Source: Eledone cirrhosa (lineage: Eukaryota). From it: 64,000 bases of DNA. Where the stretch lies: NCBI GenBank assembly GCA_964016885.1, contig OZ024743.1:301506001-301570000 (forward strand), given 5' to 3'. Positions 8,898 through 64,000 of the stretch are shown here, one piece after another. The position numbers and the translations under genes are program-made. Position 1 is the stretch's first letter. Each line of letters starts with the position of its first letter. The notes under the pieces were generated by a model. It saw nothing but the letters and a program-made list of their open reading frames with translations. It searched no databases and was not told the origin of the DNA.

Positions 8898-11800
8898 TGG
8901 TCCTGGGTATGACATTAAACTACATCCAGTGGCAAGGCTCCAGTTCGGGAGTTAAGAAGATGTGGGGAATGTGGAGTTAACCCTTAGTTGTCATGACTCC
9001 CAGGTCTGCCCTAGCCCGGGGTGGTAGTACCTGTTAGGGCTCCATTTATGGGTTAAATAACTACCTTATTCGAGTGGCGCCGGTAAGGTATTGTCAGCCA
9101 TTGAAAAGAAATATGGAGAGTCGATCTAACAGCACTAGGGTTAGGGCCCCTAATTACACTGTCAAGGAGCAGCCTGGTCGTTATGACTCTGCTGGCATAG
9201 AGCCACAGAGAGGGCTAGTGGATGATGGATCAGCTGTCTCTGAGACAAATATAAAGAATGCAGTTTTGTCGTGCAGAGGAGCCATCAAAATGGGCACTTT
9301 GAATGTGAGGACTATTCGGACGATGGAGAAGAGAGAGGAGTTGGGACATCTGTTCGAGGAGAATGGTATACAGATACTTTCGATCCAAGAACACACGATT
9401 CTACACGATGAGCCAGTGAGGAGTGTGATGATCAGGAGGGAGAGCCAGCTCATCACTACATCGACAGTGAAGAACACAACAAATGCTGCAGTAGGAGGAG
9501 TGGGCTTTGTGTTCAGTGCAAAAACCAATCTGTTGGTGAGGGAAATAATGCCTATCTCCCCGCAAGTGTTGAGGGTGACCTTCAATGGAAACCCAAGACT
9601 GACAGTCATCTCAGTCTATAGTCCAACCGAGGGGGACAGTGATGTGAATGCGGAAGAGTTCCGTGAGGAGGTGTGTAGAGCTGTCAACACCACTCAGGCA
9701 CACAATATCCTGCTTGTTTTGGGGGACTTCAATGCACATCTGAGTAAGGCGGGCAGTGAAGATCCTTGCTGGTACTTCCATAACAACACCAACCGAAATG
9801 GAAGACTACTGAGAGACACCCTGCTGGAGGCGAACTTGATGGCGACCAACCTAAGGTTTAGGAAGAATCTGGGGAAGATGTGGACCTACATCTCAGATAT
9901 GCACCTGTCCAAGTCCCAGATTGATTTCATTCTGGTGAGGAAAAAGTGGCGGAATAGGGTTCTGAACACGGAACCATACAGCTATTTCAGTACACTGGGT
10001 AGTAACCACCGGCTTGTTATGAGTGAGGTCCGCTGAGCTTAAGAAAGAGCAAGGCTCAGCCACGGAGAACAATCTATGACTGGGGAGCTTTCAAGGAAGA
10101 TGATAAGCTACAGGAGAGGTTCACAGTGGAAGTGAGAAATAGGTTTACTGCTCTGTGTGGAAAGTCAGAGGAGAGAGAGATTGGATGGACTGAGGAGAGT
10201 GTGACGAGGAGGTACTGGCACTTCACCAATGCAGTGGCGGAAGCAAGTGAAACCCTGATGCCGAGGAAAAAGAACAAAGGGAAGCACGTCAGCTCTGCAA
10301 ACCCCAAACTGTGTGCAGCCAGAGAACACCTGAAAGCTGCCAGGGACCAATTTTATGCTGATCCTACGGAGGAGAGGATGGAGACTGTGGAGGTGATGAG
10401 GGAAGAGCTCTGTACCGCTTACACTGAGGTCAGAGAGGAGGCACTGATAGAGAAGATCAGAAGTGTGGAGAGAGCGGTTGATAGATCTGGATGTAAGGAG
10501 AGCTGGATGATCATCAACGAGATCACAGGGAGGAAGAGAATGTGTTCGAGTCAGATCCAGGGAACGGGACCCGAGGATAGGAAGAGGAAATGGCTAGACA
10601 ATTTTAAGAGCCTACTAGGAGAGCCACCCTCCACAGCCTAGAGCACTGGGGAGATCAGGCGGCTGTTTGAGGAACTGGATGTTGAGACAGAGCCCTTCAC
10701 CAGAGAGGAGCTTCAGAGAGCCAAGAAGAAGATCAAGGAGGGCAAGGCTCATGGAGAAGATGGGGTGGCATCAGAGGTGATGAAGAGGTGTGATTTTGAT
10801 GATATCATCCTGGGGTTCTGTAACGGGGCACTGGAGAAAGGAGTTGCCCCGAATCAGTGGAGGATCAGTAACATCGTCCCAGTGCCAAAGAAGGGAGATC
10901 TCTCTAACACCAACAACTACCGGGGGATCTCACTGACGTCACTTGTGGCAAAGACCCTCAACAGGATGATTCTTAACAGGATCCAGCCTGAGATGGAGAA
11001 GCTGAGGGACAACCAGAACGGCTTCAGAGAGGGTAGATCAACCACCAGTCACATCCTATGCTGAGGAGGATATTAGAGGGAGCTAGGGCAAAGTGCCTTC
11101 CTGCGGTCATGGTTTTCATTGACTTTAGGAACGCCTTTGATTCTGTGGACCGTTACTGCCTGATGAAGATATTACAGGCTTATGGAATCCGCAAGAAGAT
11201 AGTGGACCTGATATCACTGCTCTACACCAACACCAAAGCCCAAGTCATTACACCTGATGGGTTGACAGAGTTCTTTGAGATACTGGCTGGAGTGCTCCCG
11301 GGAGATACATTGGCTCCCTAACTTTTTATCATCGTAGTGGACTATTGTATGTGCCTTGCACTGGAGAAACACCAGGACTCTGGCTTTACTGTAGCACCGG
11401 CTCAGAGCAGAAGAGTTAGGGTGAAAAAGGTATCGGATGCTGAATTTGACGACGACATAGTTTTGGTGACAAATACAGTGGAGGAGGCAGAGGATTTGAG
11501 GCGTGAGGTTGAGACTGTGTCGATGAGTGTGGGGCTGAGAATGAATGAGACTAAAACAACATATGTGGTAGAGAATGTTGAGAAGCCAGAGGGGATCACT
11601 AATGTAGGCGGGAAGCCGCTGGAATTGGTTGAGGACTTCCTGTATTTGGGAGCAAAGATTGGGAATACGGAAGATGATGTGGTTGAGAGGAAGAGCAAGG
11701 CCTGGGCGGCGTGCCACAGCTTGAGATCGGTGTGGAAGTCGGACCTTCGTAGAGACCTGAAAATCCGCCTCTTCATTTCTGTAGTGGAGTCTGTGCTGCT

Positions 11801-12060
11801 GTATGGGTCTGAGACTTGGACACTGACCAAGAAACTCACTCAGATGGTGGATGGGTGCTACACGAGAATGCTGAGGATGGCTCTGAAAATTAATCAGTAT
11901 ACAATGAGGATGAAACACTCAGAGCAGTATGGGAGCATCCCAAAAGTCAGCTCAAAAGTGACACAGAGGAGACTGAGGTTGGCTGGACATGCTCACCGAC
12001 ATCCAGAGTTGACATTGCACTCAGTGCTCCTTTGGGAGCCCCTACATGGACACACTAGAA
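8898..12060 (+). mobile_element. RTE-clade LINE (APE endonuclease + reverse transcriptase), decayed and 3'-truncated
   Basis: APE motifs GTLNVRT, IQEH, VYSPT, LGDFNA, QIDFIL. RT motifs NYRGISL, QNGFR, FIDFRNAFDSV, GVLPGDTLAP, EFDDD, FLYLG, LLYGSETW, RLRLAGH. Frameshifts near 10033, 11058 and 11319, and a TAG at 10639 (CAG in the second copy). Single APE-RT ORF. Confidence 0.93.
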
Positions 12061-19808: not shown

Positions 19809-21643
19809 TATATATATGTATATAAAATGTAAATGAATAGTATGTCACGTATATTATTTGTAGATATATTGTGTTACGCAATGCATGTTATTAATGATAT
19901 ATATATAATTATGATCACACACATATACAGATATATACAAATATACAAATATACAGATCGTTAAAGAATTTATAAAAAAAATCTTTTGCACCCAACAGAG
20001 ATAACATTGATTGATTGTTGATTCATTTAAATATCCCATGGATGCTTTTCAAGTTGACTTCAAATTCTGTAACGAATTAGGGTACTTATCAAGGCATTTT
20101 GTAATCAATGTGGAGAACTTATCATTTCCATCGGAGATTGGATCGTGAAATTTGCTATGAGCTTCAATCCCCTTTGGAGTTACCTGCATCAGCCTTATCC
20201 ATACACTTTCATGATGATGGATTCGTAAGTGTGCCGTCCTCAGGTGACTAGGTTATACTGATTTAGTGGTGTCAATCGTCTTCCACGCAAACCATAGGGA
20301 GACAAAGAGAATGATAGAGGAAACAGGGGCATGAGTACTGGATTGACAATTTATTGATCGGCCTCGAAGGAATGAAATGTGGATTGAGACTCGGCGAAGT
20401 AAGCCGGCGTTTCACCACGATGCCCTCTCGACTCTTCCAATGAAATGAACGACATTTAAAGATTAAATGAGCAATTTCTTATTGTGTGTTTGTTACTATT
20501 TGTGGCAGCATTAATCAATGATATAATTATTTGTCATGTCATTAATTTACAATATAAATATTGGCGGTGAATCTGTTATTGGCATGGCTGATATCATAAT
20601 AAGAAGTGTCAACACGGCTGATATTAACACAAATATATAATTTCATACTTAATATTTCAATGTTATAACGTAAATGCTTCCATTCCAGAAAGTTTCTTAA
20701 CAATTTACTAAATGACATAGAACACAAACATTTTACCGGCACGAATTCGATTTAATAAATTCAATATATCTTTGTTTATATTCCTTCAGAATTATCCGCT
20801 CATTTCAATCAACTATTATTCTGTAATCCTTTCATTATTGATTGTGTTGATGAGATAGTTCCAGGATAATTACTGTATGCTTCGCTTTCAGTTATTTTCT
20901 GTCCATCATTATAATATTCTTGGAATATATTCACAATGTTTCTACTAATAGGTAACTTGACATGGTAGATTGACACATCATTTTTCATCTACCTCAATGT
21001 TTTAAACTAAAATTTCCATGAGAATTTGACTACTAATTGTTACCGGAAAAAACATATGATACTAAAATATGATTCGTATGCCGCTAGAGTCTGTATTGTA
21101 TTTAATCCCTCGGGATAAAGGAAAGGTGTCACCCAAGTATCGAAAGAATAGTATATAATTGTATTGACCCAGCGAAGAAATATGTAAAATTTACCTGAGC
21201 TTTAAATAAATACCCGTAACAATTATCTCACAGAGTGTATTAATAATCGTTATATTCGATATTAATAACGATCTGGTCACATCTGACATTCATCCATATC
21301 CATAAAAATAAAAGGAAATTAATTCCAGAATTGTTTTAGATGAGAGTTCATACACTGTACCCTTCTTAATCAGTTTCTAACCACCCAGGTATGTCAACAT
21401 CGTTATGTTTCATATAGATTAAGTGAACAGTGCCATTGTTCTTCTTCTCATTGTGATTCATTTGTTTTAATCTAGATATTTCCTGAGACATTCAATTCTG
21501 ATATATTTAAAGCATGGTAAATGTGTTAACTTATTTTCTATGTTAAAGGAAAAATATGTTATAGAAAATGAGAGTAGATTTATCGTTTATGCGGATATAT
21601 TGAACCATGCTACAATTTTACAGAAACACACATACACAAACAT

Positions 21644-46639: not shown

Positions 46640-49600
46640 AAAGAATTCATACATGACATGGTATATATATAGTGAAATAGCGTCGAATCAAAGCAATAAC
46701 ACCAATAATAAAATATATGATAAATAGGTAAAGAAGTTACAGTTGTAAAATTAAAAAGTAAGAAAAAAGATACAATAAAAAAGTAAGAAACTAAAAATAT
46801 AATAAAAAAATAAATAAGTAAATATAAGTGAAAGCATATAAGTACAGATTACGATAGTTGTTAATAGTGGTGATGGTGAGTAAGTGTCTGTATAAGGATG
46901 CTGGGGCGGATGCTAACATAAAAATCCATATTCGAAACGTACATAGATACGTGTAGACAATCTGAGGTAGGAACAAATGACAGATAAAAGAAAAGCAATA
47001 ACTTAGAAATTAAGTGAGAGATACTAGTATGAGACCCAAGGGCGAAGGAGGGATAGTGAAGTTTTTTTTAATATGATATGTGTATGTGGTAAATGTTTTG
47101 CTGATTGTCTTGTCTTAATGGGGTTGAGTGAAGCAAAGACGTACGTTAAAACTATCCACGACACAGAGTACTCACAACATCTAACGATAATTTGTTATCC
47201 CATATACCCAGCTTCCCTAGTTTGAGCAATAACCTTAACCCACGCCATTAACATGGAATAGCACCACATAGGCATGTCCTTAAAAGACATACCTATACCT
47301 TGAAACACGGACTATACACTCAGCAAGATACAGCGTACTAATGACTTCATCCGTCGAATCCGATGGAAGGCCTATCACTAAGAGAAAGGACATGCTAATA
47401 ACACGGAGGAATTTACTAGCGAAAAATACGGATTCAAATCCTGCAAAAATCCACCGAATAACCCCCAGCTCGATGTCTTCGAATTGAACCTCATGAACAT
47501 GGTAAGTGGAACCACATTCAAAAAATGGACACATCACAACAAACTGCACTACTAAAAAAACTAGGCAAGACAAATGGTATGATAGTAAAAGAGGACAGAA
47601 CATCAAACGTATACACCATGAGCTTTAATACATACAATAACATTATATGCCGTGAACTATACAAAAAAAATACAAGAAAACTACAGAATCCACACTCACT
47701 AGCATTAATATGTAAGGAATTAGCCTAGTAAAAAAATTGAAAATATCTGATAGAGCCGGGCCTCTAACCCCTTGTAACCCCGCATTTAAAAGTAATTTCG
47801 AAACAAACCCCACAATTAGATTAATATGCCCATCCGGATATAGGTAGAATAAGCAAGTATATACTAAACAGAGTAATAGCACAAACCAAGGACAAATTAG
47901 TGATTATGCTATGGGGTAACACTAACCAAGCAATATACTGGTTCAGCAAAATAGACAGTAGGGAAACTTCGTACAGTTTGACATTAGTGACTACTACTGC
48001 TCAATCTCCCCAGTCACCCTAGATAAAGCGATAGCCTTTGCCAAGAAAAACTCTAACCTAACTTCTGATGAAATTAAAATAATACTAGCTGATAGGAGAA
48101 CTATCATTAGATTCGAAAATAGTTACTGGGAACGAATAAACAAGCATAATAGCTTCGATATCACAATGGGATCTAGCGTCTCAGCGCAGGTAACAGACAA
48201 CATACATAGTAGGAATATATATATATATAGCACACAACTTACATAAGGAATTTAATAAACTCCAAAAACTTAAATAATCAAAACATGGAAACATTACGGA
48301 AAAACATCAGAGTCTTCTTCAACAAACTATGCCTAGGTATCACTTTCGAACATAACTCTAAAAAGCAAACTTCTTAGATGTAACACTCAACCTAAACACA
48401 GGATTAATAGACCCCTTCCATAAAAATAACGAGTATCTAGCCTACATTAGTTATAACTCAAACCACCCTCAATCAATAAGTTACTCCATAGCACATAGTA
48501 TATCCATCAGAATATCCCGCCTATCTTCTAACCTAGAGATTGTTAACGAGTATGCAAGCTATTATAACATAGCTTTATATAAGGTAGGACATAAAGAAGA
48601 GCTCGAATACATACCAGATAGAGACAGCAGCAACAAACCTAACGACCGCTACACTACCCACACCTATAGAAATAACAAACATAGGACTAAACATAGAATT
48701 AGACAAGGAGCACCAAAAATAACTGAACCGAACACTAATATGAGGATCCGTAGGAACTATAGTAAATCCAGAGATAGGAAATACTTATGGTTCAATCCAA
48801 TATTCAACTCCTCTATAAAAACCAATCTACCTTCTACACATATACCATAGAATCTTTAACAAAAAACTATCAAACTATCTTACTCTACTGCAGCATACAT
48901 AAAATCAACCACAAAATAATCTCTAAAGAAAATACCCTACCAACATACACCATAACACCAAATACAAAACGCAAACGCATAAGACATCACAACTACACAT
49001 ACATCAGGGCGCATCATAGCAAAACATTAATAGGCCTAAATCTCAACCCACCCATAACAACATGCAAAACCGCAACGGAAAACCTGCACACAGGAAGGCC
49101 TCCAGCTGTAACTGCCACCTACTAGATAAGTGCCCACTACAAAATAGATGCCCGGATTCAAGTACGGTGTAGCTGTGTAGTATAAATTCAGGCAAGTTTG
49201 CATGACACTACATAGGTTCCACGTCTGGGGAGTTCAAATAAAGATGGTACGTTCACAGACACTCCATGACGAACTGTAGACTGGAGAACTCTACAACGCT
49301 CACCAATAAGGTCTGGCAGCTTAAAACACAAACCAAGAATATAGGATTAGCTGGTCAAAATTATCGAGAGCAAGGGCCTACAACAATGGAATGTCCCATT
49401 GCAGACTTTGCAATGTACAGCTATTCTATATGTTAAGGTATGATAAGATGCTGCTTAACAGCAAAATAGAAAGTTCAATTTTCTGTAGGCAATAAATAGC
49501 GACCAAGTTCACACATTTTAAACCACCGTGATTCGACCCAACAATCCCAAAATTAGAACTGAACCACCTGGATTTTAACGTACGGAATACATACCATCAC

Positions 49601-50169: not shown

Positions 50170-50280
50170 GTGCTCTGAGGATTTGATCAGAGGTAAATAA
50201 GATATTGGAGATCGAGTGACGCAACTTCGAGCGATTAGCGGCCTCTAGACTCACCTGATCAATGAAACAATTGTTAATAC
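50170..50280 (+). ncRNA. Type I hammerhead motif with 82-nt stem II (3' pLTR copy)
   Basis: gtgct-CTGAGGA-t ttgatcag..ctgatcaa t-GAAA-caattg-TT-aatac. Confidence 0.78.
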
Positions 50281-50537: not shown

Positions 50538-51203
50538 GGCTTTTCATGTTAGCACTGCATCCACACCAGCATCCTTATACAGACACTTACTCACCACCAC
50601 CACAATTATCAACTATCGTATTCTATACTTATATGCTTTCACCAGAGCCAAAGAAATGTAACAACTTTAGAAGACAAAGCTTGGACGCTCAGGGATAGCG
50701 ATCAAAAGTTTACCCTAAAATGGGAGAAATTAGCTAAAACCCAAAGCTTTTCCAGGAGCCAAAATTTCTGCAAATTGTGTAATCTTGAGATTTATTACAT
50801 AATCACACACAAGAAGAAATTGCTGAATAACAGAATTGAACGAACATTATTCTGACGTCACATAACTAAAAGCCTTTTATCCCACTACAAGCCGAATATT
50901 GCATAAAAGAGGGACATCCCCCCAACTATATAAACCTCAATCTAGTTAGAAAAATATAAAAACAATCTCTTCTCAACATATATATGTATATTAATAACCT
51001 CAAATTACCACACTAATAATGGAAAGATATGCTGATTAGAATAGGTGCAAAAATGCGATAATGAATGTGTTTAAAAGCGACCATAAGTATGTATATATAT
51101 GTGAAAATGTATATAAATAAGTAAATATATATATATGTTTGATGTTTATAGTTAGATGTAAGTGTATTCATGTATTAAAGTGCTTATATATATATATATA
51201 TAT

Positions 51204-51238
<35 letters not shown>

Positions 51239-52067
51239 CATATATATGTATATGTGTATATATATACACATAGACTAGAGTATGTATGTATATATGTGTG
51301 TGTATATACGTGTGTATATAAAGATAAGTTGAGTATAAAAATGTATACACATGAACGCGTATGTATGTACATGAATACATGTGTGTATATATATATGTAT
51401 GCATGTGTATATGTATGTAAGTATGAACATGTTACTATGTGAATGTGAGTATATGTATTTTGTAGAGGTGTGCAAATATGTTTGTGTGTGAATGCGTGGG
51501 TGAAAGGATACGTACACTTGAAAGAAAAAATTAAGTCTGAATCTTAATTAAGTGCAAACACAAAACCAACCACGCATATCTTTACTATCTCTAATCCTTC
51601 TATAGATTTAGAAAAATAACCAATAATATATTCTATAAAAATGTCAAAACAACAGATGGGAATCTAATTACTCACTGCCACCAACAATTCTCACTGCTAT
51701 CAAAATACCACTCCCTCAACTATTCTTCTAACAACTTCACCCATCCCTCCTAATATTCTCTATAAAAACCAAACAGGTCCTCAATAATATTATTCTGATG
51801 AAATGACAGTAAATAATTACATTGAAATATTGATGTCTGCATAACTAATACTTTGTAGATAGCAGCTGTTTTCAGGTTATGTAACTGTTATAGAAACACG
51901 TGTCAATAAATTCCATTCAACTAAACTGTATCCATTCAAATCTTTCTATTTTTCTCCGGATTACTTTTGGAACTTCAACTGGAACCGTCGAGCAAACTCT
52001 ACGTGAGCTGTCAATCTACTGTGTGTAATATTTATATTACAACACAACAGAAAATACTGTTTATATA

Positions 52068-52911
<844 letters not shown>

Positions 52912-52959
52912 GTTTACATATATATATATATGTATATATATATATACATACATACATAT

Positions 52960-53195
52960 ACGTGTTTTGCAACGGGTCAATTTGTGGCTCAATGAAAGTT
53001 AATAAATTAAATAATCAGAGCTATATATCATAAAACATGTTTATAGAATCACCGGATAAAATATATACCATTTCCTCTCCCAATTTATATATGTTATCTG
53101 GTGATTCTCTAGACATGTTTTATGATATATAGCTCTGATTATTTCATTTATTAACTTTTCATTGAGCCACAAAGTGACCTGTCGTAAAACACGTA
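52960..53195. repeat. Fold-back of the 3' end of the 57070-58315 family
   Basis: acgtgtttt..ctttgtggctcaatgaaa..aaacatgt / acatgtttt..ttcattgagccacaaag..aaaacacgt. Confidence 0.88.
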
Positions 53196-53205
53196 TTAGT
53201 ATGTA

Positions 53206-53258
<53 letters not shown>

Positions 53259-53745
53259 AGAAGAAGTTTATTATGAAATGGAAATGCGGGTATAAAGAAT
53301 TTATTAGGTAACAATTTTGTTTTAAATGCATATAATGTTACCTTTTTTCACCACCGTTTGCAAATTTCTGTTTTATATGTTTATACACAAGATATGGCTT
53401 TCTATAATAATAGTACTAAACACTGTTTTCTGGACTCCTTTAGAAATAACCTGCTACTATAATAGCCCCAATAACTTGTCTGTATCTCTGTACCACTTTG
53501 ACCCCTTTAACTAAATTTTGTCCGAACAACACCAATAGAAGAATTTTCTACACCCGCCAACCCTAACACGCCTCATTAAGCTAACTGCTGCAAAAACATT
53601 CTCTCCCTACAATATCTACTAGTCTGACAGTCTTAAATCCTAAGAGTCCCTCCACCTTACTCACTTCCCTCTTCCCCTTCTCTTCCTACCTCCTTCTTTA
53701 TCTTTTATCTAGTGTATAAAATATTTTCATATCATTCGAATACAA

Positions 53746-53862
53746 AGGTCTGACGACATGGTGTGTTTGCTTACAGTGTACCTTCGGTTTATGATAATAT
53801 TTTTATATTATTCAAATAGCGAGGTATAGGTAACCCATACACTATAGAAACAATTGTTACCT
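53746..53862 (+). ncRNA. Type I hammerhead motif with 90-nt stem II (5' pLTR)
   Basis: aggt-CTGACGA-c atggtgtgt..ttac..tgtaccttcg..ataatat tttt atattat..cgaggtata..gtaa..atacactat a-GAAA-caattg-TT-acct. Confidence 0.82.
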
Positions 53863-54069
53863 AATAAATTCTTTATACCCGCATTTCCATTTCATAAACT
53901 TCTTCTCCATATTTTCTCCGGATTTTAAAACACACTTTATTATACGTTGAGCAATCTCTGACGTCGGTTGACTCCATCCAATACAACTACTTAGTAACAT
54001 TGGAATACAAATTTACTAATTCTTCACACTCCTTTACAGTCGAGCAACCTATCAACATACGTTTCTGAA

Positions 54070-56352
54070 ATGGAAAAACATCATTGTGGTATGTCCTTAA
54101 AAAACATACCCATTCAGGGTAAAAAAGAATACATTCTTGGTATGATACAAAGGACCAACGAATTTATTCGGCGGATTAGATGGAGGGCCTTCCACTTCGA
54201 TAGGAAAAGGATTACACAAACTTCCGACACCACCAACGATAAGTTTGGTTTCAAATCCTACAAAAACCCACCCTCTAACCCTCTTTTGGATTCTTTCGAA
54301 CAGGACTTAATGAAAATGATAACCGGAATCAAATTTACAAACGGAAGGAAAAACGAACTGCAACGAGATATTAAAACTCTACTCGACAACCTGAGGAATA
54401 CCAAAGGAATTATCATAAAGGCAGACAAAACATCGAATCTATACACCCTGGATGTAGAAACATATAATCATTTTATACGTAAGGAATTACGTAGGAAGTA
54501 CAAAAAAACAAACGCAACTACACTAACCAACATTAATAACGCAGCATGTGATATTGTTAAGAAACTGAAAATGGACGACAGAACGGTACCCCTATCTCTA
54601 GCTACACCGACTTTTAATGTGAAGGACCATAAGGATAACTTCGATACTAACCCTAAAATTAGATTAATATGTCCTTCAAAGTCCGATATAGGTAGAATCA
54701 GTAAGTACATATTAGATCGTATTATCCCCCAAGTTAAGGCTAAGCTAGATATTAAATTATGGGGTAATACTCAACAGGCAATAATATGGTTCAATAACAT
54801 TAGGGACAAAAACAAATCTTCTTTTATTCAATTCGATATAGATGAATACTATTCCTCTATTTCACCCGAAACCCTGCATAAGGCCCTCTCTTTTTCTAAG
54901 ACTAACTCGGACCTCACAAACGAGGAAATTAATATTATACTTGAAGCTAGACGCACAGTAGTGCACTTTGAAAATAGTTATTGGGTCCGCAGAGATAGAC
55001 CCTCGGAATTCTACATTACGATGGGTTCTAATGATTCGGCGGAGGTCACGGATCTGGTTGGGATCTATATAGCCCACAGACTCCAGAGCGAATTTAGAGA
55101 CCTCCACGGCGGAATATACCGCGACGATACACTTCTATTAGTCAAGAATATGAACAAACAAAACCTAGAAAGGCGACGTAAAAACATTAGGAAACTTTTC
55201 TTAGAACTAGGGCTTAATATTACCTTCGAACAAAATCTTAAGGTGGTCAACTTCTTGGATGTCACCTTCAACCTTAATAACGGTAATATAGAGCCATTTC
55301 ACAAACTTAATGAAAATCTCAAGTACGTTAATGTAAAATCGAACCATCCCCATTCCATTATTAAATCTATCCCTAAAAATATACCCACAAGGATCTCCCG
55401 ACTGTAGTCTAATTTGCAGACCTTCAACGAGCATGCTGAATATTATAATGACGCACTTAGAAAAGCTGGTTACTGCGAGAAAATAGAATATCTAGACGAT
55501 AACCACATAAGTACTATGAATAAAACACATCTAAGTCGAACTAGTATTGCACCACACACACACATCAATAGGCATACTAATAGGTGCAAACCAGCAAATA
55601 GAGTCAGACGTAGAGAGTACATATGGTATAACCCCGTGTACAATACTTCAATTAGCACTAAGATTATCTCACAATCCTATACACTAATCAATAAACACTT
55701 TACAACTTCACATAAATACTATAAAATCTTTAACTCGCGTACAATTAGACTCTCATACTCCACTGCACCTAACATAGAACAACTAATTAAAAAACTCAAC
55801 TCAGCAATACTAAATAAGTACATCCCTAATGACTCAGCGCACCAGCATTGCAACGTACAACGCACTAACACGCAACTACAACCCCACCAAACTATCCAGG
55901 ATTCTATTGCAAAACATAAAACTAATTGTAACTGCACCAAACCAGGTACGTGCCCACTGAATAACCAGTGCCTAGCACGCAATATTGTCTACCGATGTAC
56001 AATAAATTCCGGAACCAACAGATGGTATTACGTCGGATGTACCGCAACTTCTTTCAAGGCTCGCCTATACCAACATCGATCTTCGATCAGGCACGAGAAA
56101 ATGCGCTCCGTAACAACCCTCGCCGATAAAGCCTGGCAGCTCCGGAGGAGCAATCAAGCATTCTCCCTTGATCGGCAAATTATTGCAGCTGCGCCTGCAT
56201 ATAAGCAAAATCATCGATTCTGCAAATTATGCAATTTGGAGATATACTGCATTTTAACGTCGGTAAACAAACGTTTGAACAGCAAAATTGAACGTTCACT
56301 ATACTGTAACCATCGTTTGAAAACGACTTTTTCTTTTTTTAAATGCATATAA
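54070..56352 (+). CDS. PLE polyprotein (reverse transcriptase + C-terminal GIY-YIG endonuclease), ~760 codons, one in-frame TAG at 55405-55407
   Basis: ORFs 54070-55407 and 55414-56352 share a frame. SLKNIP, RRIRWRA, KADKT, IQFDIDEYYSSI, ITMGS, GIYRDD, NFLDVTFNL, IWYNP, CNC-x5-CPLNNQC, IVY..YVG.T..FK.R..H, CKLCNLE, LNSKIE..CNH. Confidence 0.93.
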
Positions 56353-56763
56353 TGTTACCTTTTTACACCACCGTTTGCAAATATCTGTTTTATACGTTTA
56401 TACACAAGATATGGCTTTTCTATAATAATAGTACTAAACACTGTTTTCTGGACCCCTTTAGAAATACCCTGCTACTATAATATCCCCAACAACTTCTCTG
56501 TAACTCTGTACCACTTTGACCCCTTTAACTAAATTTTGTCCGGACAACACCAATAGAAGAATTTACTTCCCCCGCCAACCCTAACACGCCTCATTAAGCT
56601 AACTGCTGCCAAAACATTCTCTCTTTACAATCTCTACTAGTCTGAGAGTCTTAAATCCTAGGACTCCCTCCACCTTACTCACTTCCCTCTTCCCCTTCTC
56701 TTCCTACCTCCTTCTTTCCCTTTTATCTAGTGTATAAAATATTTTCATATCATTCCAATACAA

Positions 56764-56880
56764 AGGTCTGACGACATGGTATGTTTGCTTACAGTGTACC
56801 TTCGGTTTATGATAATATTTTTATATTATTTAAATAGCGAGGTATAGGTAACCTATACACTATAGAAACAATTGTTACCT
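56764..56880 (+). ncRNA. Type I hammerhead motif with 90-nt stem II (3' pLTR)
   Basis: Same layout as 53746-53862. Confidence 0.8.
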
Positions 56881-57034
56881 AATAAATTCTTGATACCCGC
56901 ATTTCCATTTCATAAACTTCTTCTCCATATTTTCTCCGGATTTTAAAACACACTTTATTATACGTTGAGCAATCTCCGACGTCTGTTGACTCCATCCAAT
57001 GCAACTACTTAGTAACATTGGAATACAAATTTAC

Positions 57035-57075
<41 letters not shown>

Positions 57076-57277
57076 CTTTATATGTAATAATCTCCCATTA
57101 GGTTGAGATACAAATTTGGCTGTGATGTGCTGTGCTTTCTAGCAAGATGCCACCAGCCGTAAGCAACTACCACATCCCTTCCAACCTGACCGCTGCTATG
57201 TCACTATTCTTAGCTATTTTTGAATGAATACTTGGTGCGATCACTTTGGAAAATTTAATGTCTAGATTAGAGCAAAA

Positions 57278-57350
57278 CTCCTGAAGAGTCCGATGTTCGA
57301 GTTTCCAAAGTTACTGGAAATCTCAAAATGCGGACGAATCCATGGTAGAG
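57278..57350 (+). ncRNA. Type I hammerhead motif, 48-nt stem II, GAAA mutated to GAAT
   Basis: ctc-CTGAAGA-gtccg..cggac-GAAT-ccatgg-TA-gag. Confidence 0.65.
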
Positions 57351-57689
57351 GTACATAAATGTATTCTATTTTCTCCTAGTTTATTTTACACCTATTTCTG
57401 TTTAATTGACTGTATCTAGGCGATTACGCTGTAGAAATATTCGATAAATATTCCGTCGCGGCCGACGCCAAGGGCTAGTTTCGGTTATTTGTTGGAGATT
57501 TCTTCATAGGAGCCTTATTCTTATAGCCTGGTCTATTCGATTTTTTATATAGTTAATTATGGTAATTGGGAGAGGAAATGGTATATATTTTATCTGGTGA
57601 TTTTACAGACATGTTTTATGATATATAGCTCTGATTATTTAATTTATTAACTTTTCATTTAGTCACAAAGTGACCCGCTGCAGAACACG

Positions 57690-57774
<85 letters not shown>

Positions 57775-57970
57775 TTTATGTAATAATCTCCCATTATGTT
57801 GAGATACAAATTTGGCTGTATCGTGCTGTGCTTTCTAGCAAAATGCCACTAGCCGTAAGCAGCTACCACATCCCTTCCAACCTGACCGCTGCTACGTCAC
57901 GATTCTAGCCATTTTTGAATGAATTCTTGGCGCGATCAATTTGGAAAATCTAATGTCTAGCTTAGAGCAA

Positions 57971-58047
57971 ACTTCCTGAAGAGTCCGATGCTCGAGTTTC
58001 CAAAGTTACTGGAAATCTCAAAATGAGGACGAAACCATGGTAGAGGT
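57971..58047 (+). ncRNA. Type I hammerhead ribozyme motif, 48-nt stem II
   Basis: acttc-CTGAAGA-gtcc..gagtttcca aagttac tggaaatctc..ggac-GAAA-ccatgg-TA-gaggt. Confidence 0.88.
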
Positions 58048-58312
58048 GAATACATTTATTCTATTTTCTCCTAGTTTATTTTACACTTAATTCTGTTTAA
58101 TTGACTGTATCTGGGCGATTACACTGTCGAAATATTCGATAAATATTCCGTCGCGGCCGACGCGAAAAGCTGGTTTCGGTTATTTCTTGGAGATTTCCTC
58201 ATAGAAGCCTTATTCTTATAGCCTGGTCAATTCCATTTGTTATATAGTTAATTATGCTAATTGGGAGAGGAAATGGTATATATTTTATCTGTGATTCTAT
58301 AGACATGTTTTA

Positions 58313-58383
<71 letters not shown>

Positions 58384-59932: not shown

Positions 59933-61111
59933 ATATTGTTATATTTGGGGAGGGTCATATTTGCGTAATATTGCCAGAATTAATAACAGAACACACTCAC
60001 TGTTTGGTTGGTTTTCGCTTCTCGCTGTCTTTTATATATATATATCTGCGATCTAACTTACTCGGTCCTCAATGTTGCCATTGACTGACCGGCGGTCAAA
60101 AATAATACAGATACAATATAGACAAACACATATATATATAGTTTACATAAATCTTTCGTTGCACATCTGCAACATCGTCAGTGGTGTTATATTCATTGTT
60201 CCTCCTGTTGTGTTGTATGTCTACGCCATTTTTTTTTTTGTTCAGTCTGTCTATATATTTATTTATTTATTTGCTTGTTTGTTTATCTTATTTTATTTTG
60301 TCTTCTTTGCGCATGCGTTTGCGTGTGTGTATAGTGTTATGTGTGATGTGTGACTAGTGTGTATAGTGTTGTGTCTGCTGGGTGACTAGTGTGTGTTTAT
60401 GTGCTTGTGTATGTATTTATTTATCTTATTTTATTTAATTTAATTTACTTATTTATTTATACTTCTCTTAGGTCAGTGTTGTTTGTTTGGGTGTTGTTGT
60501 TGTTCCACTCATTCTTTCTGTTTAGCTAAACAGAAAGAATGAGTGGAACAACAACAACACCCAAACAAACAACACTGACCTAAGAGAAGTATAAATAAAT
60601 AAGTAAATTAAATTAAATAAAATAAGATAAATAAATACATACACAAGCACATAAACACACACTAGTCACCCAGCAGACACAACACTATACACACTAGTCA
60701 CACATCACACATAACACTATACACACACGCAAACGCATGCGCAAAGAAGACAAAATAAAATAAGATAAACAAACAAGCAAATAAATAAATAAATATATAG
60801 ACAGACTGAACAAAAAAAAAAAATGGCGTAGACATACAACACAACAGGAGGAACAATGAATATAACACCACTGACGATGTTGCAGATGTGCAACGAAAGA
60901 TTTATGTAAACTATATATATATGTGTTTGTCTATATTGTATCTGTATTATTTTTGACCGCCGGTCAGTCAATGGCAACATTGAGGACCGAGTAAGTTAGA
61001 TCGCAGATATATATATATAAAAGACAGCGAGAAGCGAAAACCAACCAAACAGTGAGTGTGTTCTGTTATTAATTCTGGCAATATTACGCAAATATGACCC
61101 TCCCCAAATAT

Positions 61112-61301: not shown

Positions 61302-61669
61302 GAGAGAAAAGATGAATATTAAATGAAAGTGTTTTTATAAAGGAATTTATTAGGTATTGACATATGTTTCTCTAACAGACGGAATACCTATTATTGCTGC
61401 TTGCGTAATCATATAATGTTACCAAGTATTCGATCGCAAATGTATAATCAGTTGTCACTTCTTCAGAGCTATTGGGTAAATTGGAAAAAAATCAGAAACA
61501 TTAAAGTAGTTATATTAGTTGTAAGAAAGGAAGAAGTGAAGGGATAGTATATGACAGATGGCAATTCAATTTGCTTGTAAACAAGTATATAGAAGGTTTT
61601 TAATGAGAATACAATGAGTATATGGCTTATTTTATCTAAATAAGAATTTTTTGGAGTGCCTATTTTAAT

Positions 61670-64000
61670 CTTTACATCCAAAACTGTCAACCGCTCTCTC
61701 CACACTTCTGATCTTCTCTATCAGTGCCTCCTCTCTGACCTTAGTGTAAGCGGTACAGAGCTCTTCCCTCATCACCTCCACAGTCTCCATCCTCTCCTCC
61801 GTACGATCAGCATAGAATTGGTCCCTGGCAGCTTTCAGGTGTTCTCTGGCTGCACACACTTTTGGGTTTGCAGAGCTGACGTGGTTCCCTTTGTTCTTTT
61901 TCCTCGGCACCATGGTTTCACTTGCTTTAGCCACTGCATTTGTGAAATGCCGGTACCTCCTCGTCACACTCTCCTCAGTCCATCCAATCTCTCTCTCCTC
62001 TGACTCTCCACACAGAGCAGTAAACCTGTTTCTCACTTCCACTGTGAACCTCTCCTGTAGCATATCATCTTCCTTGAAAGCTCCCCAGTCATAGATTGTT
62101 CTCCGGGGCTGAGCCTTGCTCTTTCTTAAGCTCACGCGGACCTCACTCATAACAAGCCGGTGGTCACTACCCAGTGTACTGAAATAGCTGTATGGTTCCG
62201 TGTTCAGAACACTATTCCGCCACTTTTTCCTCACCAGAATGAAATCAATCTGGGACATGGACAGGTGCATATCTGAGATGTAGGTCCACATCTTCCCCAG
62301 ATTATTCCTAAACCTTAGGTTGGTCGCCATCAAGTTCGCCTCCAGCAGGGTGTCTCTCAGTAGTCTTCCATTTCGGTTGGTGTTGTTATGGAAGTACCAG
62401 CAAGGATCTTCACTGCCCTCCTTACTCAGATGTGCATTGAAGTCCCCCAAAACAAGCAGGATATTGTGTGCCTGAGTGGTGTTGACAGCTCTACAGACCT
62501 CCTCATGGAACTCCTCGGCATTCACATCACTGTCCCCCTCGGTTGGACTATAGTCTGAGATGACTGTCAGTCTTGGGTTTCCATTGAAGGTCACCCTCAA
62601 CACTCGCGGGGAGATAGGCATTATTTCCCTCACCTATCTGTATACCACTCTCCTCAAACAGCTGGATAATCATCAACGAGATCACAGGGCGGAAGAAAAG
62701 GTGTTCGAGTCAGATCCAGGGTACGGGGCCCGAGGATAGGAAGAGGAAATGGCTAGATCATTTTAGGACCCTACTAGGAGAGCCACCCTCCACAGCCCAG
62801 AGCACTGGGGAGATCAGGCGGCTGTTTGAGGAACTGGATGTTGAGACAGAGCCCTTCACCAGAGAGGAGCTTCAGAGAGCCAAGAAGAAGATCAAGGAGG
62901 GCAAGGCTCATGGAGAAGATGGAGTGGCATCAGAGGTGATGAAGAGGTGTGATTTTGATGATATCATCCTGGGGTTCTGTAACGGGTCACTGGAGAAAGG
63001 AGTTGCCCCGAATCAGTGGAGGATCAGTAACATCGTCCCAGTGCCAAAGAAGGGAGATCTCTCTAACACCAACAACTACCGGGGGATCTCACTGACGTCA
63101 CTTGTGGCAAAGACCCTCAACAGGATGATTCTTAACAGGATCCAGTCTGAGATGGAGAAGAAGCTCAGGGACAACCAGAACGGCTTCAGAGAGGGTAGAT
63201 CAACCACCAGTCACATCCTGATGCTGAGGAGGATATTAGAGGGAGCTAGAGCAAAGTGCCTTCCTGCGGTCATGGTTTTCATTGACTTTAGGAAGGCCTT
63301 TGATTCTGTGGACCGTTACTGCCTGATGAACATCTTACAGGCTTATGGAATCCCCAAGAGGATAGTGGACCTGATATCACTGCTCTACACCAACACCAAA
63401 GCCCAAGTCATTACACCTGATGGGATGACAGAGTTATTTGAGATACTGGCTGGAGTGCTCCAGGGAGATACATTGGCTCCCTACCTTTTTATCATCGTAG
63501 TGGACTATTGTATGCGCCTTGCACTGGAGAAACACCAGGACTCTGGCTTTACTGTAGCACCGGCTCAGAGCAGGAGAGTTGGGGCGAAAAAGGTATCGGA
63601 TGCTGAATTTGCCGACGACATAGTTTTGGTGACAAATACAGTGAAGGAGGCAGAGGATTTGATGCGGGAGGTTGAGACTGTGTCGATGAGTGTGGGGCTG
63701 AGAATGAATGAGACTAAAACAAAATATCTGGTAGAGAATGTTGAGAAGCCAGAGGGGTTCACTAATGTAGGCGGGAAGCCGCTGGAATTGGTTGAGGACT
63801 TCCTGTATTTGGGAGCAAAGATTGGGAATACGGAAGATGATGTGGTTGAGAGGAAGAGCAAGGCCTGGGTGGCGTGTCACAGCTTGAGATCGGTGTGGAA
63901 GTCGGACCTTCGTAGAGACCTGAAAATCCGCATATTCATTGCTGTAGTGGAGTCTGTGCTATTGTATGGGTCTGAGACTTGGACACTGACCAATAGACTC
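61670..64000 (+). mobile_element. Second RTE-clade LINE copy with inverted 5' part (61670-62659 minus, APE; 62660-64000 plus, RT), running off the window
   Basis: Highly similar to 9352-11830. LGDFNA and SDHRLV on minus. NYRGISL, DFRKAFDSV, GVLQGDTLAP, EFADD and FLYLG on plus. Confidence 0.95.

Follow-up and report, generated by a model that had tools for sequence, protein, structure and literature searches.

A stop-broken Hydra-clade PLE with a 90-nt stem II in its predicted hammerhead motifs

The element at 53253-57039 of the window (the 64,000-nt stretch of Eledone cirrhosa DNA analysed here) is, at a probability of roughly 0.6, a stop-broken copy of a Hydra-clade PLE in whose pseudo-LTRs (pLTRs) a hammerhead of the dimer type is predicted, with 90 nt in stem II, the long stem being likely selected and common to a radiation of related families, and the mechanism being as proposed below. 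This reading builds on the observed clade features, the motif, the copy architecture and the covariation of the rod-like stem II in sister families. On its sequence, the window motif looks like a new structural variant, the ribozyme and the clade both being known ones.

Direct repeats at 53316-54021 (5' pLTR) and 56334-57039 (3' pLTR), both on the + strand, are 95.5% identical over 707 aligned columns and offset by 3018 nt. Each carries AGGT-CTGACGA-[90 nt]-GAA-ACAATTGT-T-ACCT, and the ~700-bp pLTRs, hammerhead motifs and 3018-nt spacing of the initial annotation are thus all real. Motif 1 (53746-53862, all parts on the + strand) consists of stem I (53746-53749/53859-53862), the core CTGACGA (53750-53756), the 90-nt stem II insert (53757-53846), GAA (53847-53849) and the stem III palindrome ACAATTGT (53850-53857), with a predicted cut after 53858. 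Motif 2 (56764-56880, +; core at 56768) has one basal-helix mismatch and a predicted cut after 56876. Both predicted cut positions agree with those first given, as does the leader of 211 nt (53859-54069, +), which follows from the ATG at 54070 and the predicted cut after 53858. When compared with a type I hammerhead, CUGANGA, GAAA, the UH core and stems I-III are present, and a 90-nt rod replaces the short canonical stem II with its loop I-loop II contact. Stem III is best read as an 8-nt palindrome and, as suggested at the outset, would be able to pair between two copies. The closing C-A mismatch of the initial annotation is not special: at the base of stem II, T/T is common among Hydra rows and C/A occurs in PLE-X1_cBra (File S2, PMC8557442).

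The element has (TA)n at both ends. The 3' pLTR terminates in (TA)n, 163 nt past the second cut site. At the other end, an inverted short arm (53253-53316, -) is the reverse complement of 53852-53912 by blastn; its 3' end lies ~+50 to +54 past the cut site and adjoins (TA)n, an end class matched in 29 arms of other copies. The single ORF of 760 codons (54070-56352, +) encodes the RT followed by a C-terminal GIY-YIG, with no IFD, and has one in-frame TAG at 55405-55407. This stop is private to the window copy, the codon being a sense codon in 21 of the 22 arms that span the site. For comparison of copies we used 40 loci; they were picked among the first 100 of the 162 places that match the 3' end exactly. 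An open frame of 758 aa was present in one of the 40 (copy L130).

The first description of the element as a near-intact Naiad is ruled out by the C-terminal GIY-YIG, by DKT in place of DKA and by a complete hammerhead in both pLTRs. Naiads have an N-terminal endonuclease, CxC, DKA and an IFD, and are described as lacking a canonical hammerhead (Craig et al. 2021, PMC8557442). None of these features fits the window element: the endonuclease YVG (aa 654 of 760) stands after the RT YRDD (aa 350), DKT is at 119, the sole CxC (620) is past the RT and not upstream, and the type I motif is complete in both pLTRs. The likeness to Naiads is confined to PLE architecture and (TA)n preference (PMC8557442).

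We instead assign the element, from its sequence, to the Hydra clade because a C-terminal GIY-YIG, RWR, DKT, CxCx5C, CxxC/CxH and (TA)n targets define that clade. In the window protein these are found as RWR at 37, DKT at 119, YRDD at 350, CNCTKPGTC at 620, YVG at 654, CKLC at 718 and CNH at 746. The published Hydra clade has the same C-terminal endonuclease, RWK, DKT, CxCx5C linker, CxxC, CxH, absence of CCHH, and (TA)n targets, together with type I hammerheads, an AC..GT palindromic stem III and an inverted 5' arm (PMC8557442, as far as available); its RWK is RWR in the window copy and RWK in sister families L162 and L185. The window protein has no CCHH, nor does a CxxC separate the two parts of its GIY-YIG motif; by eye, its RT3-RT4 spacing is colinear with that in the Hydra rows shown in Fig. 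S7. The insertion preference is seen as (TA)n at the window junctions and as (TA)n or (TC)n at arm 3' ends in the 40 loci. In a FastTree phylogeny, families A-E formed one clade (support 1.0), families M and N joined weakly (0.35), and the short-stem family S11 fell outside; the input comprised database relatives without a non-Hydra outgroup, in an alignment projected on one family-A protein, and published Hydra references were compared by eye. Pfam gave nothing above cut-off for the ORF halves or for three intact relatives.

The 90-nt stem II is both real and unusual, in keeping with the initial remark that it is not a standard form. The 26 published Hydra rows have ≤26 nt between CUGANGA and GAA (File S2, PMC8557442), and the window element further differs from the described Hydra elements, in the parts available, by its 8-nt loop-less palindrome and 3.0-kb unit. 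Two spike-moss PLE-X rows have ~48-54 nt in the same interval (File S2, PMC8557442). These PLE-X1 hammerheads, flagged there as deviating, resemble the window motif in having an enlarged stem II region, but belong to Chlamys-related, endonuclease-less plant elements, with a stem about half as long and no shared module seen in the rows given. Elsewhere in the available literature, a 'long' or 'larger' helix II means 6-8 bp. The minimal hammerheads of metazoan PLEs are like the window motif in lying in both pLTRs ~3 kb apart, with a short helix I and a palindromic helix III, but a helix II of 7-8 bp counts there as 'larger than usual', and no internal-loop module is described in the available text (Cervera and De la Pena 2014, PMC4209133). 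Within a literature scope that includes the available parts of Perreault 2011, Cervera 2020, a 2019 review, a 2026 retrozyme preprint and a 2026 viral ribozyme paper, no PLE hammerhead with so large a stem II came to light; Luense et al. 2017 (dimeric PLE hammerheads) and the supplements of Cervera 2014 and Perreault 2011 lie outside this scope and may show long stems. The long-stem form is likely not yet described.

In metagenomes, a motif was present in 53 of 76 Hydra-like loci and none in 23; the best motif had an insert of 10-25 nt in 53/53, and one locus had an additional weak 104-nt match within its ORF. Because similarity to a single database protein set the ranking of these loci, close relatives of the window lineage are under-sampled among them. 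A metagenome scan with a single protein found nothing.

The host genome presents a different picture. Across its 3.0 Gb, matches to the core pattern numbered 8,469 with inserts of 8-40 nt (46 in the control), 4,950 with 41-74 nt (65), 9,640 with 75-105 nt (191) and 7,505 with 106-140 nt (152, under a different palindrome mask), family M (~104-115 nt stem II) making up most of this longest class. Inserts of 41-140 nt thus amount to 22,095 pattern matches, which are not element counts, against 408 in the control, a 49- to 76-fold enrichment spread over >12 families; 70 distinct long-insert sequences fell into 18 clusters. Tens of thousands of hammerhead motifs in a genome can therefore escape descriptors built for short stems. 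Insert lengths in this genome run from 11 to ~115 nt, as rods, one branched form and simple hairpins. Seven long-stem families are linked to Hydra ORFs (A90, B91, C85, D83, E82, N98 and M104, the last via a degenerate motif in the window), as is the short-stem S11, and no linked Hydra ORF was found for J95, F78, G62, H58 or K in the sampled loci. The window family was also present in two sequencing runs (contigs only), with identical end positions. It is highly implausible that chance alone arranged the motif, or that it is a bare core of the kind that Craig et al. noted in some Naiads (PMC8557442). Such a view would agree with the Rfam search, where the 150 of 224 matches listed included no hammerhead family and were microsatellite and hairpin noise only, but it is already refuted by these counts and by the domain order, with the endonuclease C-terminal; stems I and II, moreover, covary across families.

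An interrupted rod is the predicted fold of the 90-nt insert; in the 5' pLTR its energy was -25.9 kcal/mol (z -3.7), with 0/200 shuffles equally stable; that of the 3' pLTR gave -20.8 kcal/mol (z -2.1; 9/200). The window family is young and offers no usable covariation, its variation in stem II being 1.4% versus 1.4-2.0% elsewhere. In families D, E and F (20 motifs, sequence-only alignment, 19-pair structure), 90% of cells were paired, with 43 two-sided changes and 0/500 shuffles as high, against 32-43% paired in slid controls; these cell-based measures are inflated by kinship among the sequences, and pair- and type-based measures were not significant (57/500 and 225/500 shuffles). RNAalifold alone on D/E/F predicted eight pairs, with two-sided changes in five, and in families A, B and C two-sided changes occurred in 12 of the 19 predicted pairs.

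Between the covarying helices lies a nearly invariant internal-loop module, 5'-A-N-U-X-3'/5'-X'-A-G-3', present twice, 11-12 nt apart, and kept by six families. The D/E/F model places module 1 of the window motif at AGUG 53775-53778 opposite UAG 53827-53829, and a variant module 2 at GUUU 53787-53790 opposite UAG 53817-53819 (both +). Both modules are invariant columns in alignments A1 and A6, and with this model the window motif, aligned at both, reaches 38 bits versus 22-24 bits for two module-less long stems. By eye, G62 seems to carry one module and H58 perhaps does; the long stems of J95, K and N98 lack it. The evidence for the module rests on the alignments because a loose script (regex) scan also matched 4-59% of shuffled sequences. 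The module may resemble bulged-G or S-turn motifs.

It could be argued that the extension is tolerated baggage: insertions into an arm directed away from the core would be retained provided that they pair, and shared ancestry alone would account for the modules held in common. The range of insert lengths and shapes in this one genome would fit, as would the success of short-stem Hydra families: the long stem is unnecessary for success because the short-stem Hydra family is equally abundant (8,469 matches at 8-40 nt). We nevertheless consider this quite improbable, as the unpaired or non-canonical module positions are invariant across families with protein identities of 44-67%, while the helices on either side exchange one base pair for another. 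From these comparisons, the 90-nt stem II is likely a selected structural extension common to a radiation of related families in this host. A lineage whose stem II has grown to 48-115 nt and carries a repeated module also offers a module that can be mutated apart from the catalytic core.

The ends of the copies constrain what the RNA template can be. In the 40 loci, 33 arms end at +163 to +178 past the cut, a class selected by the search pattern, and 29 end at +45 to +54; 17 further pieces are internal or run off the fetched interval. Both arm types stand on opposite strands, back to back, in 26/40 loci. Both 3' end sites that recur throughout the family (+45 to +54 and +163 to +166 past the cut) fall in the leader and are likely RT start sites, by analogy with the green anole Poseidon element PAc (Frangieh et al. 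2024, PMC11167929), for which two internal RT starts, an uncut template as main substrate and a protein-assisted hammerhead are reported. PAc likewise has AT-rich targets, extends both strands and shows a pair of 3' ends that lie downstream of its hammerhead, but belongs to another clade, starts RT 111-118 nt inside the ORF rather than in the leader, and has no long stem II described in the available parts of that paper (PMC11167929). The two 3' ends of the window family are ~110 nt apart, compared with the 30-40-bp tail described for PLEs generally in the sources available.

The cut itself is crossed by 54/62 arms. No arm (0/62) starts ≤3 nt from it, eight start within 25 nt, and three are longer than one unit. 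With most arms running through the cut and not one beginning at it, linear RNA cleaved at both motifs is rejected as the template, and with it the linear form of the excised 3-kb template first envisaged; judged from the copies, the template RNA would be either uncut, or cut and re-ligated into a circle. The circular form of the original proposal is compatible with the data, but dimer cleavage through the palindrome and a circular template were already proposed for PLEs in 2014 (PMC4209133). Overlapping pieces of one insertion share 7.0 variants/kb, versus 1.4/kb between insertions (overlaps ≤1.7 kb), and these shared rare variants point to one source element for both arms, via two RNAs, a circle or later gene conversion, which could itself produce the sharing between inverted arms. 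The pLTRs of the window copy have one shared and 30 private variants, numbers without power for using tandem pLTR identity as a test of circularity. Circular junction reads, the check suggested initially, cannot discriminate either, because reads across the closure of a circle would be identical in sequence to the pLTR. Two fixed 3' ends, arms that run through the cut and shared rare variants together constrain models of PLE transposition.

These observations bear on whether efficient dimer cleavage releases a 3018-nt unit that circularises and serves as both message and template, with the long stem II tuning or stabilising catalysis, e.g. in place of loop I-loop II contacts. The core and palindrome are intact, and such a circle would give the arms exceeding one unit (3/62) and the 677-881-nt tandem repeats of the non-coding K units discussed below; the scheme has a published precedent (PMC4209133), and self-cleavage can aid cap-independent translation in viral UTRs (PMC13725137). 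Yet read-through of an uncut two-pLTR RNA also yields more-than-unit copies, minimal hammerheads cut poorly even as dimers, and hammerhead mutants of the anole PLE still insert in vitro, with no reads ending at the cut (PMC11167929). A competing predicted fold also covers the cut site: with downstream sequence, 53826-53837 would pair over the cut region 53856-53876, and predicted hammerhead pair probabilities are <0.1, versus ~0.6-0.9 if the RNA ends at 53870. We regard efficient cutting and circularisation as rather unlikely. The competing duplex is strong (-16 to -17.5 kcal/mol) in family A, with one family-J copy at -15, and a general conserved 'anti-cleavage' switch was rejected on account of this restriction. 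PLE hammerheads are poor cutters and were dispensable for in vitro insertion in the sole element tested.

For the selected-extension reading that we favour, the following mechanism may be proposed. Two copies of the motif would pair through ACAAUUGU, and cleavage would probably be slow, conditional or protein-assisted. The RT-endonuclease would nick (TA)n on both strands, and cDNA would start at the two internal sites, ~+50 and +163 past the cut, on a template RNA continuous across the cut (uncut, or cut then circularised); one source element would in this way give rise to both arms, standing back to back. The two-module rod would most likely be a binding or docking surface in an RNP, with the element's own protein as the leading candidate partner, and as a modelled role this is the least supported step. 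A more ambitious scheme, which taken whole is tentative and unlikely, makes the hammerhead the hub of RNP assembly: two RNAs from one source would pair via the stem III palindrome, each long stem II would expose, at a spacing of one helical turn, a pair of identical internal loops to an RT-endonuclease dimer, and one complex with two templates would prime both strands of a (TA)n break, giving overlapping two-armed insertions, with cleavage secondary or a regulated exit step.

The element is bordered by non-coding, retrozyme-like tandem K units of 695 nt (52879-53255 and 57039-58321), recognised by their own hammerhead with a 48-nt stem II and by an internal (TA)n. They have the palindrome ACCATGGT and their own 3' end at +279, and number 2,808 first-look candidates genome-wide. 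The window element interrupts the internal (TA)n of the K array and probably arrived after it. The longest alignment shared by the two is ≤19 nt, and on their sequences the two palindromes could not pair with each other. The initial suggestion that the element best qualifies as driver of the neighbouring non-coding units is accordingly unsupported; the window copy is an unlikely driver because it has a private stop and splits that array. Mobilisation of K units in trans by some Hydra protein is possible. A search for an ORF partner found Hydra ORF pieces near 5 of 30 K loci, none of them demonstrably linked: one is the window element, two are on the other strand, one is downstream, and one lies ~1.3 kb upstream of the hammerhead, past the shared sequence of the unit.

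Several other repeats occur in the window or were met among the loci. A decayed Hydra element of family E (47253-49522, +) has hammerheads with an 82-nt stem II at 50175 (+) and 46634 (-), one per arm, and a truncated family B copy (50640-50891 and 51795-51904, +) has a 91-nt stem II and the palindrome ACACGTGT. A broken Hydra ORF (28655-26465, -) is followed ~1 kb downstream by a degenerate family-M hammerhead (about 25515-25400, -). In family C (L161-L166), ACACTTGT forms stem III and is imperfect as a palindrome, a homodimer of which would contain two C-U mismatches; L162 has an open 784-codon frame despite this. Family J95 (L050:1495-1622, -, and relatives) has a 93-97-nt stem II with a predicted three-way junction, and no ORF was found upstream. 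A short-stem hammerhead at 2645 (+), with a 14-nt insert and ACTAGT, belongs to another repeat family, and weak matches to the long-stem model (17-19 bits) at 61353-61472 (-) and 20926-21028 (-) are possibly decayed motifs. Long near-perfect hairpins at 52149-52400 and 60486-60565 gave sub-threshold matches to miRNA models and are likely back-to-back transposon arms. Finally, a repeat of >2 kb, 96% identical and partly inverted, relates 9535-11837 to 61669-64000.
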